Assembly: GCF_003334335.1 (NCBI RefSeq)
Contig: NZ_QOWQ01000021.1
Source of the DNA: Escherichia coli
Lineage (GTDB): Bacteria > Pseudomonadota > Gammaproteobacteria > Enterobacterales > Enterobacteriaceae
DNA length: 64,000 nucleotides
Reading direction: 5' to 3' (one strand)
The notes below the pieces were generated by a model. The model was not told where the DNA came from, ran no database searches, and saw only the letters and a program-made list of their open reading frames with translations. Below are positions 8,661 through 36,104 of the stretch, in pieces. The number at the start of each line of letters is the position of its first letter. Position 1 is the stretch's first letter. The position numbers were made by a program, and so were the translations under genes.

Positions 8661-9801
8661 GGGTCGGTTTCTCGTTAATAAAATCCAGGGCTTCCGGCAC
8701 CGGAAGATGAGTAGGTTGTACAGGGCGCTGTCCACCAGCCAGACGCCAGCGTTTCAGTTGCCAGACCCAGGCCAGCACTTCCGCCACCGCGGCGTACAGT
8801 TGACCCGGGATTTGTTGACCAATCTCCGCATGTCGATACAGCGCTCGCGCCAGCGGCGGCGCTTCAAGCGTCGGGACGTTATTTTCAGCGCCAATTTCAC
8901 GAATGCGCAGCGCGACCAGCCCTGCACCTTTAGCGACCACTTTCGGTGCGCTCATTTTGTTTTCGTCATACTGCAACGCTACCGAATAGTGGGTCGGGTT
9001 ATTGACAATGACATCCGCTTTCGGCACATCGGCCATCATCCGACGCCGTGCGGCAGCTCGCTGCATCTGACGGATCCGTCCTTTAACATGGGGGTCGCCT
9101 TCGCTTTGTTTGAACTCATCACGAATATCCTGCCGCGACATTCGCAGCTTTTTCAGGTGGCTGAATATTTGGAAAAAGACGTCAAATCCCACCATTGGAA
9201 TGACACCAAGCACCACCAGCAGTGCGCATAGCCCTACCAAATCCATCGCATTACCCATGGCGGTAATCGGAGACTCGGCCATTAAGCGCATCATCTGCGG
9301 CCAGTGATGCCAGAGATAAAACCCCGTCACGCTGCCAACCAGGATGTTTTTCAAAATTGCTTTAAGCAACTCCGCGCCAGTCTGAGCCGAGAACATCCGT
9401 TTAATGCCCGGTAGCGGGTTGAGTTTGGAAAACTTCGGCTGCAAGGATTTGCCGCTAAATACCAGCCCTCCCAGCATGACCGGAGAAATGAGCGCCACCA
9501 GCACCACGCCGCTAATCAGCGGCAGCAGCGCCAGCATGGCTTCTCTGATCAGCAGAATAATCTGCCCGAGGATCAGATTCGGGTCATTGATAATACTGTG
9601 ATCAAAATGCAGCCCAGCGGAGAGCATGCCCGACAATCGACGGGCCAGCGACACACCGCCAAACCAGATAACACTAACGCCCACCAGCAAAATCAGCAGT
9701 GAGGTCAGTTCACGGGAACGCGGGATTTGCCCCTCTTCCCGCGCTTTTTCTAGTCGGTGAGGTGTGGGGGCTTCTGTTTTGTCGTCGCTCTCGTCAGACA
9801 C
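8653..9801 (-). CDS. flhB: flagellar export apparatus switch protein FlhB
   Basis: 382 aa ORF MSDESDDKTEAPTPHRLEKAREEGQIPRS... with the NPTH autocleavage motif (VIVNNPTHYSVAL). Confidence 0.95.
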   Translation of the reverse strand: MSDESDDKTEAPTPHRLEKAREEGQIPRSRELTSLLILLVGVSVIWFGGVSLARRLSGMLSAGLHFDHSIINDPNLILGQIILLIREAMLALLPLISGVVLVALISPVMLGGLVFSGKSLQPKFSKLNPLPGIKRMFSAQTGAELLKAILKNILVGSVTGFYLWHHWPQMMRLMAESPITAMGNAMDLVGLCALLVVLGVIPMVGFDVFFQIFSHLKKLRMSRQDIRDEFKQSEGDPHVKGRIRQMQRAAARRRMMADVPKADVIVNNPTHYSVALQYDENKMSAPKVVAKGAGLVALRIREIGAENNVPTLEAPPLARALYRHAEIGQQIPGQLYAAVAEVLAWVWQLKRWRLAGGQRPVQPTHLPVPEALDFINEKPTHE

Positions 9802-10657: not shown

Positions 10658-12111
<1,454 letters not shown>

Positions 12112-19865: not shown

Positions 19866-20749
19866 GCTTCCTCGGTTGTCGTCTGTTGTTGCGGATTTTT
19901 CACCGCACGCACATGCTCTTCCAGTTCAATAAACGACGGACGTTCGCTGGAATAGAGCGTTTTGCGACCAAACTCAACGGCGATAGGCGGTGCGTAACCG
20001 TTCAGATTAGAAAGCAGAGTGACTTTGACGCACTGCATCATTTTGCTGGTTTCGGCGCTTTTCTGACGTAAAACACTCGCTAATGGGGAAATAAATCCGT
20101 AAGCCAATAAAATGCCGAGGAAAGTCCCCACCATCGCATGTGCGATAAGCGCACCCAGCTCGGCGGCAGGACGATCGGCTGAACCTAACGCGTGAACGAC
20201 CCCCATTACAGCCGCGACAATACCAAACGCCGGAAGTGAGTCCCCGACCAGCGCCAGACTGTTCGCCGGGACTTCTGCCTCGCTTTCGTGCGTCTCAATC
20301 TCTTCATCCATCAGGGCTTCGATTTCGAAGGTGTTCATATGACCGCTGATAATCAGACGCAGATAATCGACGATAAAATCAAGCATGACGCTATCCGCGA
20401 GGATGCGTGGGTAGCTGGCGAAGATCTCGCTCTCACGGGGATTTTCAATATCACGTTCCAGCGAAAACATCCCCATCTGCCGCGATTTCGCCATCAACCG
20501 ATAAAGCAGAGCCAGCAGATCCATATACATTGCTTTGGTGTATTTGGAGCGACGAAACAGCAACGGCAGCGCCTTCAGCGTGCCTTTAATCGCTTTGCCA
20601 TTATTGCCGACGATAAACGACCCAATCCCTGCACCGGCAATAATCACCAGTTCAGCGGGTTGATAGAGTGCTCCAAGGCTTCCACCGGTCATCAAATAAC
20701 CGCCGAAAACTGTACCGAGAACAACCAGGTAACCTAATAAGATAAGCAC
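19862..20749 (-). CDS. motA: flagellar motor stator protein MotA
   Basis: 295 aa, four TM segments, (V/M)[17 protein letters not shown]-terminus. Confidence 0.96.
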
Positions 20750-20817
20750 GACATCATCCTTCCACTGTTGACCATGACAGGATGTTCAGTCGTCAGGCGT
20801 TAACGCGCGATTGGGGC

Positions 20818-20850
20818 AAAAAAAAGCAGCGGTACGTCGTTACCGCTGCT
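20818..20850 (-). terminator. rho-independent terminator after flhC
   Basis: Perfect inverted repeat gcagcggta...taccgctgc preceded on + by A8 (T-run on the - strand), about 30 nt downstream of the flhC stop. Confidence 0.75.
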
Positions 20851-20875
20851 GGAATGTTGCGCCTCACCGTATCAG

Positions 20876-21454
20876 TTAAACAGCCTGTACTCTCTGTTCA
20901 TCCAGCAGTTGTGGGATAATATCGGCAGGATTCTGGGAAAGTTTACGTCTTTTTACTGCCCGGGATGGCGGTTGACATAAGCTGCAGGCAAAGCTGCCAA
21001 CAGGCTGGTGAGCGTGGGTAATAAAATTGCCGCCGCAGCAGTTGCAGCTGGAAAGTTGCAGTAATCCACTTTCAACAAACCGCACCAATGTCCAGGCACG
21101 GGTTAATGCCAGCAGTGGTCCTTCTTCTGCTTGTGGGCACTGTTCAAGGTATAAACGGTAGGCTTTGATCACCGCATCGACGCCATTACACAAACCGGTT
21201 TTCAGTAAAAACTGCCATGCATTACAGAACATCGAAGCATGAACGTTTTGTTCCCAGGTCATAAACCAGTCGGTTGAGAATGGCAGCATGCCTTTCGGCG
21301 GTGGGCTTCCGCGCAGTTCTTTATAAAGTTTTATCAGGCGTCCGCGACTTAACTGTGTTTCGCTTTCCAGCATCTGCAAACGAGCGCCCAGGGTGATCAA
21401 TTCCATTGCCAGCTGAATATCCCGCGCTTCCTGAACAATGCTTTTTTCACTCAT
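20876..21454 (-). CDS. flhC: flagellar master regulator subunit FlhC
   Basis: 192 aa [30 protein letters not shown]... with zinc-binding cysteines. Confidence 0.97.
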
Positions 21455-21456
21455 GA

Positions 21457-21807
21457 TCAGGCCCTTTTCTTGCGCAGCGCTTCTTCAGGCTGATTAACAT
21501 CATTCAGCAAGCGTGTTGAGAGCATGATGCCGGTATGAATTTGCTGGAGATCGTCAACGCGGGAATCTTGCGTCAACTGAGTAATCGTCTGGTGGCTGTC
21601 AAAACGGAAGTGACAAACCAGTTGATTGGTTTCTGCCAGCTTAACCATTTGCGGAAGAGTCAGTGCCGCTAACGTTGTCGCCATTTCTTCATTTATGCCG
21701 AGACGAAACATAGCGGACGCTTTGTCCTGAACAATCAAACGCTGTGCAAGTAGTAAATATGACAAGTTGATGTCATAAATGTGTTTCAGCAACTCGGAGG
21801 TATGCAT
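21457..21807 (-). CDS. flhD: flagellar master regulator subunit FlhD
   Basis: Track ORF 21457..21816; conserved start [19 protein letters not shown] gives 116 aa. Confidence 0.95.
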
Positions 21808-22587
21808 TATTCCCACCCAGAATAACCAACTTTATTTTTATGCGGTTTCACCGCACCCCGTGATGTCGCCGGGAAGCCCCGGTAAAAAATAATTAGCATT
21901 AGAATAGTTGCGATAAGCTGCAATAAGCAGAACCACCTTTTTTGGTTTAATATGTCCTTACAAATAGAAATGGGTCTTTACACTTATCTAAGATTTTTCC
22001 TAAATCGACGCAACTGTACTCGTCACTACACGCACATACAACGGAGGGGGGCTGCGATTTTCAATAATGTGTGATGCAGATCACACAAAACACTCAATTA
22101 CTTAACATAAATGTATAAGTCATACTTTTGTTTTGGGTGTATTTCAATCTGTTAAAAAGTTTTTCGCTACGCTAGCAAGCAAAAATGAAACAGGAATAAT
22201 CGAAATGGGATGCTGCGCACAGTTAAAATAACTCACCGTAAATAATCATCTGCTATAAATAATCACTTTCATGCAATACCAGATAAGCTATTTTTAAACA
22301 GACACTTACCGCACAACAAACTAATTAAATACAAAGAAAGGCAACAATCAACTTAATGTTAATGAAATGTTTTACATATATTAACCACTTATTTAATGCG
22401 GAGAATCAGTACACTATTTTCTTATAATTACATTTGAAATTATATGATCACCGGGAGTGATTGATTAATTGTCTTTACTAATAATCAGACTAATATTTAC
22501 CTGTTTGACCGAGTTGGGATTGCGTCGTTTCTCCATTAGGAGTAAAGCTTTAATGTCACCTGAAGTTCACAGAATAAGGAACAGGTT
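21808..22587. promoter_or_regulatory. flhDC / uspC divergent control region (long AT-rich leader and promoter)
   Basis: About 780 bp AT-rich intergenic region upstream of flhD with no ORFs; individual binding sites not resolved. Confidence 0.6.
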
Positions 22588-23016
22588 ATGAGCTATAGCA
22601 ATATTCTTGTCGCTGTTGCGGTTACACCGGAAAGTCAGCAACTGCTGGCAAAAGCGGTATCTATCGCCAGGCCAGTAAAGGGACACATCAGTTTAATTAC
22701 TCTCGCTTCCGACCCGGAAATGTACAATCAATTAGCCGCGCCGATGCTTGAAGATTTACGCAGCGTGATGCAAGAAGAAACGCAAAGCTTTCTTGATAAG
22801 TTAATTCAGGATGCGGGGTATCCCGTTGACAAGACGTTTATTGCCTACGGTGAGTTAAGCGAACATATTCTGGAAGTATGTCACAAACATCATTTCGATT
22901 TGGTGATTTGCGGTAATCACAATCACAGTTTCTTTTCGCGAGCATCCTGCTCGGCGAAAAGAGTGATTGCCTCAAGTGAGGTCGATGTGCTGTTAGTTCC
23001 ACTTACGGGTGATTAA
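22588..23016 (+). CDS. uspC: universal stress protein C
   Basis: 142 aa UspA-family ORF MSYSNILVAVAVTPESQQLLAKAVSIARPV... Confidence 0.92.
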   Translation: MSYSNILVAVAVTPESQQLLAKAVSIARPVKGHISLITLASDPEMYNQLAAPMLEDLRSVMQEETQSFLDKLIQDAGYPVDKTFIAYGELSEHILEVCHKHHFDLVICGNHNHSFFSRASCSAKRVIASSEVDVLLVPLTGD

Positions 23017-23022
23017 CCGCTC

Positions 23023-26375
<3,353 letters not shown>

Positions 26376-28963: not shown

Positions 28964-29759
28964 GGTTCTCTCCAGCTTTAGTGTCGTTTTGTGTAGGGCA
29001 AAAACGAATGACATTCGTTAAATTAATCGGAAAACAAAGCATTACCTTTTAACTAAAAGATAAGTGACTGTGTTGACATAGTTTTAGCGAGAAATTAATT
29101 CTCCATAGGAGAGCAATATCACATCGCAGAATTACAGTGAGAACGTGCATAAATTTAGCGGGAAAAGACATAAGGGAAAGCCAATTTGTCAGACAAATTG
29201 TCGAATGCACAGCAGATTAATCCATAAGATTAGCCTGGAAATCCTTGTTGTCTTTGGTACCCATGCGGGATGTCTTCTTTTTAACCAGTCAATAGGCCGC
29301 ATTACCTGGCGTTGAGTTTTTGAAATGGTGTAATAACCACAACTCAAAGATGTGGAAAATGCGCGTCATTCATTTCGCCATTAATTATCACCGTGCTCAT
29401 TAATTAACAGAACACGTATAATGAGAGCCATCTCGCAAAAATGAAAAAACGTTTTATAAAATCATCATTTCATCATGAATTCAAATTAATCGTTTAATAT
29501 CAACAAGATACAAAAAGCACTATCATTAAAATTCATTGCAGTTACATTGATTTCATCAATGAAATGTAAAAATATATAAACTTGATGATTTAAGCATTTT
29601 CTTATACCCGTTCAGACGTTATTCTTATTTCAGATCATCGTCAGAATTGACTCCACGATCACATTTCGGACCGGCAGAAAGGAATTATTCTGCAAACAGT
29701 AATTATGGTGTTTTGATTTATCTTGCACCTCTCCACTTCTGGATATAAGGATATTAGGT
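28964..29759. promoter_or_regulatory. araFGH promoter / ftnB upstream intergenic region
   Basis: About 800 bp non-coding, AT-rich region between divergent araF and ftnB; AraC/CRP sites expected from the literature but not pinpointed here. Confidence 0.5.
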
Positions 29760-34649: not shown

Positions 34650-34704
34650 TGGTACCCGGAGCGGGACTTGAACCCGCACAGCGCGAACGCCGAGGGATTT
34701 TAAA
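34650..34704 (-). tRNA. leuZ: truncated tRNA-Leu (leuZ-type, anticodon UAA), 3-prime ~55 nt only; prophage attachment-site remnant
   Basis: tggtacccggagcgggacttgaacccgcacagcgcgaacgccgagggattttaaa is the reverse complement of the tRNA-Leu 3-prime end through the anticodon loop; identity stops there and the D-arm/acceptor 5-prime half is absent. Not an intact tRNA. Confidence 0.8.
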
Positions 34705-34810: not shown

Positions 34811-35812
34811 TTACCCTCTATTGTCAAAGGGATTCAGTTCAACAGCAGCCTCTAAATGACCCGGCGCAAAGTGTGCATAACGCATAGTCATTTTTATATC
34901 GCTATGCCCCAGTATTTTTTGCAACACAAGAATATTTCCTCCCCGCATCATAAAATGGCTGGCAAACGTATGACGTAGCACATGAGTTAATTGTCCGTCA
35001 GGAAGTTCGATCTTTGCTCTCTTAATAGCGGCGTCAAAAGCCTCATAACATGGTGAAAAAAGCGCCCCGCGTTTTTTAGGAAGCATGGCCTGCAATTGAG
35101 GTGAAATAGGTACAGTGCGGTTCTTCTTTCCTTTGGTTTTAACAAATGTGATTCGTCCAGGCAGTATTTGAGATTGCTTTAATCCCTCTGCTTCACTCCA
35201 CCTGGCACCAGTCGCAAGCCCAATACGGACGACAACACCCAAATCTTTATTCCGTGACTCATCACATGCAATCAGAAGGCGTTCAATCTCATCTGCATAC
35301 AGAAACGCCTGTTCCTTTTCTTCCTCACGAAACTTGCGAATACCTGTCAATGGATTTTCACCAGACCACTCCCCAAGGCGCTTCAGTTCAGCAAAAACAG
35401 CATGTAAATATGACTGTTCGCGATTAACGGTTGCTTCACTAAGTTTTTTCTTCCCCTTTGGATTCCATTCACCTGATAACCGCCGCTCCCTGTAGATGGC
35501 AAACATATTTTTATCAAATTGAGAAGCAAACGGATCACCCAACCTAGAACAAATCGCCTCAAGTTTAGCCTTGCGCTCTTCACCGGAAGACAACGTTTTA
35601 CCGTACATTTCAAACCAGCGAGCAACCAACTCGGAAAGACGGGGGCCAGAACCATCCTGAAACTCGCCCCCTAAATTACCGTTCATTAAACGGCGCTCAT
35701 AAGAGAGCGCCTCACCTTTAGTAGCAAACTGCTTACGAATGCGTTTTCCTGCTGCTCCGTAGGGATAGCATTCACAGAGCCATTTACCAGTAGATAGTTT
35801 ACGAACAGACAT
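34811..35812 (-). CDS. int: P2-type tyrosine integrase
   Basis: Track ORF 34811..35887; start MSVRKLSTGKW aligns with the P2 Int N-terminus; catalytic R...HxxR...Y motifs (ATGARWSEA, HVLRHTFASH, MRYAHFAP). Confidence 0.9.
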   Translation of the reverse strand: MSVRKLSTGKWLCECYPYGAAGKRIRKQFATKGEALSYERRLMNGNLGGEFQDGSGPRLSELVARWFEMYGKTLSSGEERKAKLEAICSRLGDPFASQFDKNMFAIYRERRLSGEWNPKGKKKLSEATVNREQSYLHAVFAELKRLGEWSGENPLTGIRKFREEEKEQAFLYADEIERLLIACDESRNKDLGVVVRIGLATGARWSEAEGLKQSQILPGRITFVKTKGKKNRTVPISPQLQAMLPKKRGALFSPCYEAFDAAIKRAKIELPDGQLTHVLRHTFASHFMMRGGNILVLQKILGHSDIKMTMRYAHFAPGHLEAAVELNPFDNRG

Positions 35813-35846
35813 ATTAAAAAGTGCACACCAAGGAAAATTTTCGTGA

Positions 35847-36104
35847 TTAAGATGGTTGCTCAACCCGCATAAAGAGCTTTTCATCAACTAACTGCTCCCA
35901 TTCATCGGGATCAAGCTCCCAAGAAGGAGCCGACATATCATCCTCATCCCCCTCATTTACAAAAGTAACCAAATAGAAAGGAAGATCTCCGGGCTCATCG
36001 TCATCGTCCTTGACAATATGAACATTAGTAACAACTATACGATTAGATGGATTAACTTTAGATACATATAAACCAATTAATGGAATTTGCGGATTAGTTA
36101 CCAT
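35847..36104 (-). CDS. hypothetical highly acidic 85 aa protein (cargo between repressor and integrase)
   Basis: ATG with upstream agagg SD; product has runs of D/E (VKDDDDEPGDLPFYLVTFVNEGDEDDMSAPSWELDPDEWEQLVDE); no family recognised. Confidence 0.6.
   Translation of the reverse strand: MVTNPQIPLIGLYVSKVNPSNRIVVTNVHIVKDDDDEPGDLPFYLVTFVNEGDEDDMSAPSWELDPDEWEQLVDEKLFMRVEQPS

Follow-up and report, generated by a model that had tools for sequence, protein, structure and literature searches.

An uninterrupted, IS-free flhD-uspC intergenic region in an Escherichia coli chromosomal segment

The 780 bp between the divergent start codons of flhD and uspC in the stretch of Escherichia coli DNA analyzed here (64,000 nucleotides; hereafter the window) very probably represent the ordinary, ancestral flhD-uspC intergenic region, free of insertion sequences (IS) and under the usual control of flhDC. 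The gap contains no IS sequence, is colinear with the gap of other E. coli, and lies between intact genes. The sequence-only reading of this DNA had described a long, uninterrupted flhDC control region, a description that stands for the full 780 bp. These 780 bp are nevertheless not all flhDC control region, since the divergent uspC gene shares the gap and about 199 nt of it are the transcribed flhD leader.

Organization of the flhDC-uspC locus

The window is a segment of the E. coli chromosome, probably of a phylogroup-A-like strain, the phylogroup being suggested by similarity to K-12. On the minus strand, the genes follow the order torZY-cutC-argS-flhEAB-cheZYBR-tap-tar-cheWA-motBA-flhCD; uspC comes next on the plus strand, followed by otsAB-araHGF. 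The flagellar and chemotaxis genes from flhE through flhD are all intact. The list of open reading frames (ORFs) begins flhD at an upstream GTG (21816), while the RefSeq annotation of identical DNA places the start at the ATG at 21807, and the boundaries of flhD and uspC used here (Table 1) agree with the annotation of three related records (strains ECZP248 and EC416, and a K-12-like record). FlhD is 100% identical to the K-12 protein (WP_001295647.1) and FlhC is likewise identical to its K-12 counterpart, whereas UspC matches the EC416 protein exactly but shows one change (K18Q) against the K-12-like protein.

Table 1. Positions of genes, regulatory landmarks, and substitutions at the flhDC-uspC locus of the window; negative distances are relative to the transferred flhD start
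Feature	Position	Strand	Description
flhC CDS	20876..21454	-	192 aa, intact; from the ORF list and the identical protein (WP_001291603.1) in the K-12-like record and EC416
flhD CDS	21457..21807	-	Intact; 116 aa, counted from the ATG at 21807
AsflhD antisense RNA locus (predicted)	21785..22006	+	About 221 nt; antisense to the leader of flhD and to 22 nt at the 5' end of its CDS
Intergenic interval	21808-22587		Between the divergent start codons of flhD and uspC; 780 bp, the entire gap
flhD 5' leader	21808..22006	-	About 199 nt (198 nt in K-12)
flhDC core promoter (putative)	22007..22041	-	Putative -10 TACAGT (22018-22013) and -35 TTGTAT (22041-22036), 17-nt spacer
CRP site TGTGATGCAGATCACA	22070..22085		Perfect TGTGA-N6-TCACA palindrome, centred at -71.5 from the transferred start
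TTAA IS5 hotspot	22102..22105		-96 to -99, unoccupied (PMC5100188; Barker et al.; Wang and Wood)
8-bp IS1 target CATAAATG	22106..22113		Duplicated around IS1 in MG1655-type K-12; single copy in the window
AT-rich negative-control zone	22106..22482		-100 to -476, intact; G+C 26-31%
T to C substitution	22213		-207 from the flhD start; private
G to A substitution	22391		-385, and 197 nt upstream of the uspC ATG; rare, recurrent
uspC-proximal segment	22483..22587	+	Presumed leader of uspC, with a presumed ribosome-binding site (AGGAAC) 9 nt upstream of the ATG
uspC CDS	22588..23016	+	142 aa; ATG at 22588

The flhD start was placed at window position 22006 by transfer from K-12, in which the 3' end of the antisense RNA AsflhD coincides with the flhD start (U00096.3 position 1,978,395; PMC9600491). 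This placement follows from the K-12 start lying 198 nt before the ATG, together with one extra T in the leader of the window. Two independent checks support it, as the CRP site then falls at -71.5 and the TTAA sequence at -96 to -99. The spacing of -71.5 for the CRP site at flhDC is the one reportedly described by Soutourina et al. in 1999. CRP acts as a positive regulator on the flhDC upstream region (PMC5493358), and its site is invariant in all 10 aligned lineages. The extra T belongs to a run at 21938-21943 (an A-run in the mRNA, at about +63 to +68), which comprises six T in the window, ECZP248, and EC416 and five in the K-12-like record and the other seven aligned lineages. The uspC-proximal end of the gap is also strongly conserved, with 5 variable columns out of 105.

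The putative flhDC hexamers (TACAGT and TTGTAT) were assigned from their spacing to the start site, and the core promoter segment in which they lie is nearly invariant across the 10 lineages. A generic promoter scan did not call this promoter, as is expected for a promoter that depends on an activator. The generic promoter and terminator scan was given no weight, because it returned fewer matches than shuffled sequence did and failed to detect the real flhDC promoter. The sole sigma-70-like match in 21700-22700 is weak (TCGAAA-18-TAAAAT, 22200-22229, plus strand) and points toward uspC; the window-private substitution at 22213 lies within its spacer, and its -10-like hexamer is variable at 22224 in three other genomes.

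AsflhD spans positions 1,978,175-1,978,395 of U00096.3 in K-12 (PMC9600491), and the corresponding segment of the window differs from that of the K-12-like record only by the single indel in the T-run. Rfam has no family for AsflhD. The codon changed in the AsflhD promoter mutation (FlhD D12) corresponds to the plus-strand GTC at 21772-21774 and adjoins a -10-like hexamer, CATAAA (21774-21779), which ends 6 nt before the predicted AsflhD start. The transfer of coordinates is consistent, since the D12 promoter mutation (PMC9600491) falls beside this hexamer. A transcript from the predicted locus would begin near plus-strand position 21785 and, as an AsflhD RNA, would be processed by RNase III.

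Absence of insertion sequences from the intergenic region

Several searches of different kinds give the same picture of a gap without mobile elements. The interval 21808-22587 holds no ORF of at least 60 aa (two ORFs of 40 aa only), and a repeat search of the flhD-uspC gap found no direct repeats. The sole inverted repeat at the gap is a pair of 12-nt arms lying 605 nt apart, one of them within uspC; this pair is at chance level and was discarded as a meaningful repeat. BLAST queries consisting of an IS1 copy (K-12-like record) and an IS5-like copy (strain 1506) gave only chance matches against the whole 64-kb window (best E 0.2-0.5), and a fuzzy search of 21700-22700 for the end sequences of eight E. 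coli IS types found none. An Rfam scan of positions 20000-24000, with E up to 1, returned zero matches. The upstream zone contains no IS bounded by terminal inverted repeats and a target-site duplication, the 8-bp MG1655 target being present in single copy. Downstream of the flhD start there is no interruption and no loss of flhDC; the sequence runs unbroken and intact through the leader, flhD, and flhC. The ORF, repeat, BLAST, and IS-end searches thus bear out the earlier statement that the region lacks a transposase-like ORF and terminal inverted repeats.

An IS remnant, which had been set in advance as the finding that refutes the uninterrupted state, was detected neither in the alignments nor in the IS BLAST nor in the IS-end search, and the check for a large deletion was equally negative. 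In an alignment of 10 lineages (the window and nine others, down to 94.6% identity and including O157:H7 and A0 34/86), the gap is colinear, with indels of 1-2 nt only, all of them in the leader. It is extremely improbable that a remnant, an excision scar, or a deletion was missed by such a simple reading, given that the gap is colinear base for base with uninterrupted genomes of many lineages, that IS ends and IS homology are both absent, and that the length is the norm for the species.

Comparison with alleles that do carry an IS places the window on the uninterrupted side. The K-12-like record aligns to the window as two BLAST pieces that overlap on 22106-22113 and have IS1 between them; its IS1 block measures 776 bp including the 8-bp duplicated target, whereas the window is continuous at these positions. 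Once IS1 is removed from the K-12-like sequence, only 3 of the 780 positions differ (the extra T in 21938-21943, T to C at 22213, and G to A at 22391). The MG1655 reference allele shares with the window the flanks on both sides of the insertion point, but its 768-bp IS1 and 8-bp duplication are absent from the window. The native locus of BW25113 and of 'poorly motile' MG1655 has the same flanking genes, the same order of landmarks, and identical FlhD and FlhC proteins. The targets of the IS5 alleles known from MC1000 and from motile BW25113 isolates (at -96 to -99 or at more distal positions as far as -476; PMC5100188, PMC11237407) are unoccupied, and in contrast to these alleles the window has no IS5 sequence at all. 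Across the TTAA at 22102-22105, the window is continuous with uninterrupted genomes. An IS5 insertion reported 516 bp before the flhD ATG (PMC11237407) corresponds to the CTAA at 22321-22324, which is likewise unoccupied in the window.

A sequenced culture may in principle consist of a mixture in which some cells carry an IS upstream of flhDC and the assembly records the majority, IS-free allele. Mixtures with and without IS5 at this locus have been found in Keio and CGSC 7740 stocks (PMC11237407), and close relatives of the window are IS-active near the locus. Such a mixture is nonetheless very unlikely here, as the window gives no sign of it (a single consensus cannot show a mixture) and its 64 kb contain zero copies of IS1 or IS5.

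Distribution of the uninterrupted region among E. coli genomes

The flhD-uspC gap of the window matches 5,422 of 5,426 complete E. coli genomes, and at least 80% of it is covered in one place in 5,272 of the 5,426. The 150 genomes without 80% coverage in any single place can be set beside about 118 genomes, of the same 5,426, in which the gap is split over two places, a pattern expected from insertions of more than about 0.9 kb. When 60 records were drawn at even steps along the match ranking, the gap was one unbroken piece of 777-780 bp in 57; the remainder comprised one genome with IS1 inside the gap (K-12 MG1655) and two partial cases. Among the matches listed, a length of 777-780 bp is found in nearly every E. 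coli genome, and the exact length of 780 bp is confined to a few top matches. The IS-free gap is therefore the norm for the species, shared by about 95% of sequenced E. coli. As the species norm, the uninterrupted state tells little about the strain; the IS-free flhDC-uspC arrangement is already known as the default and is hardly informative.

The IS1 allele upstream of flhDC is, on the other side, a peculiarity of laboratory strains. A probe for the MG1655 IS1 junction was fully covered in 42 of the 5,426 genomes, and among the matches listed all were K-12-sized chromosomes. Two further strains have IS1 at other points of the locus: in E05, IS1 is accompanied by a deletion extending from tar to about window position 22367, in the uspC-proximal part of the gap, and in MB50, IS1 abuts the equivalent of window position 21916, within the flhD leader. 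The behaviour of the MG1655 reference, whose motility is boosted by IS1, should not be assumed for the strain from which the window derives. The locus can serve as a clean wild-type comparator for laboratory flhDC alleles and as a coordinate map of the known landmarks (Table 1).

Predicted regulation of flhDC

Published work bears out the earlier statement on laboratory strains, in which motility increases when IS1 or IS5 inserts upstream of flhDC (PMC5100188, PMC5493358, PMC11237407, PMC4183435). Stimulating insertions have been located at -96 to -99, -166, -303, -315, and -476 (PMC5100188), and the IS-activated alleles of this range comprise IS1, IS5, and IS3. A thyA cassette placed at the same sites raises flhDC as an IS does, which indicates that activation results from disruption of the upstream zone and not from a promoter borne by the IS (PMC4183435). 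The flhDC upstream region has been described in the context of stress-induced DNA destabilisation (SIDD) and H-NS, and the promoter requires CRP, while repressors bound in or upstream of it include H-NS, LrhA, OmpR, RcsAB, Fur, IHF, MatA, and YjjQ (PMC5493358). High flhDC expression lowers survival of acid shock (PMC11237407). The expression of flhDC is also set by unlinked genes that lie outside the window (lrhA, clpX, hns, and others; PMC8652233).

Taken with the landmarks of the window, these reports suggest a scheme in which flhDC would be transcribed from a weak sigma-70 promoter dependent on CRP bound at -71.5, and about 380 bp of AT-rich DNA beyond the promoter would lower this transcription. 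The flhD leader of about 199 nt would double as the template of the antisense RNA AsflhD. In laboratory K-12, insertions of IS1 or IS5 between -96 and -476 disrupt the upstream zone, and flhDC expression and motility increase. Since the upstream zone of the window has no such break, the usual control of flhDC, with many inputs and mostly in the repressed state, is to be expected. The bglGFB, fucAO, and glpFK operons may offer a parallel, in that AT-rich, destabilised upstream DNA represses a CRP-dependent promoter and is a target of IS5 (PMC5493358); the likeness is an analogy from the literature, and flhDC, unlike these operons, is not silent in wild strains.

The sequence-only reading had taken the missing IS as a sign of native flhDC regulation. 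[quoted passage not shown] The expression state of flhDC is something that we infer from the anatomy of the locus, and the case for native expression is weakened by the substitution at -207, the substitution at -385, and the lineage-specific extra base in the leader, none of which could be matched to a mapped binding site in the literature covered.

Private and rare substitutions

The window differs from ECZP248 and EC416 by about 5-10 substitutions in 29-35 kb. Four substitutions in about 29 kb distinguish it from both strains, at positions 9347, 22213, 22391, and 29468, the last of which lies in the araF-ftnB intergenic region. The substitution at 9347 falls in flhB on the minus strand and changes residue 152 of FlhB, part of the flagellar export gate, from threonine to asparagine (T152N). 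The C allele at 22213, represented by the 41-mer GGAATAATCGAAATGGGATGCTGCGCACAGTTAAAATAACT centred on this position, occurs in 0 of 5,426 genomes, as against 4,958 of 5,426 for the 41-mer with the T allele, and the position lies within a block of 48 nt (22176-22223) that is invariant in nine diverse lineages. The A allele at 22391 occurs in 5 of 5,426 genomes, on at least two other haplotypes, and falls in the most variable segment of the gap. EC416 has private substitutions of its own, at 22287 in the flhD-uspC gap and at 29366 in the araF-ftnB intergenic region. The presence of two of the four private SNPs within 780 bp was considered as a signal of selection and was found unconvincing, since EC416 shows private SNPs in the same intergenic regions, and such clustering in AT-rich intergenic DNA is thus not peculiar to the window.

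These substitutions bear on whether a gap without an IS could still depart from native regulation, with the change at -207, perhaps in combination with that at -385 or with the additional leader base, altering a repressor or nucleoid-protein site and shifting the expression of flhDC or uspC. The rarity of the C allele, the position of 22213 in an invariant block inside the zone where disruption activates flhDC (PMC5100188), and the reported motility-activating point mutations upstream of flhDC (PMC11237407) all speak for such an effect, as does the fact that two of the four window-private substitutions fall within the 780 bp and a third is FlhB T152N. Against these points, neither 22213 nor 22391 could be assigned to a mapped binding site, such as one for LrhA, OmpR, or H-NS, from the literature covered, in which PMC8652233 gives no positions. 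Furthermore, the private substitutions of EC416 indicate that clustering is general, the change at 22391 sits in a variable segment and recurs on other backgrounds, a single-base change is far milder than an insertion of 0.8-1.2 kb, and the substitutions could be sequencing errors. A departure from native regulation without an IS is accordingly judged unlikely, and the ordinary, IS-free region under usual control remains the preferred reading.

Taken alone, the change at -207 may have no effect or may stem from an error in sequencing; that it is a mild cis-regulatory variant has only a small chance. It is the only loose end of potential at this locus, being a private substitution in an invariant block that could represent a natural cis-regulatory variant. 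That a natural isolate tuned its flhDC expression by this private base change instead of an IS is a similarly slender prospect. The recurrent G to A change at -385 and FlhB T152N might stem from the same selection on motility within this lineage.

Observations on neighbouring sequences

Close relatives of the window show IS activity near the locus, with IS1 in both yecT and torY of ECZP248 and an IS5-like element in ftnB of strain 1506, at points corresponding to window positions of about 5840, 1-1125, and 29935; the window itself is IS-free. A prophage of the P2/P88 type is inserted in a tRNA-Leu gene and occupies window positions 34650-64000, its far end lying beyond the window. At this site, the relatives have tRNA-Leu, tRNA-Cys, and tRNA-Gly followed by pgsA-uvrC, whereas the window retains only the 3' 55 nt of tRNA-Leu (34650-34704), and ARAGORN predicted zero tRNAs in the window. 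The prophage genes encode an integrase (34811-35887, minus strand), a DNA methyltransferase, a gpA-like nickase, portal, large terminase, scaffold, major capsid, and small terminase proteins; in comparison with the best catalogued phage, 25% of the query matched, at 78.6% identity. Finally, ECZP248 is one base short at positions 10741 and 25252 relative to both the window and EC416, and the loss at 10741 makes its cheY a frameshifted pseudogene in RefSeq, whereas cheY of the window is intact.
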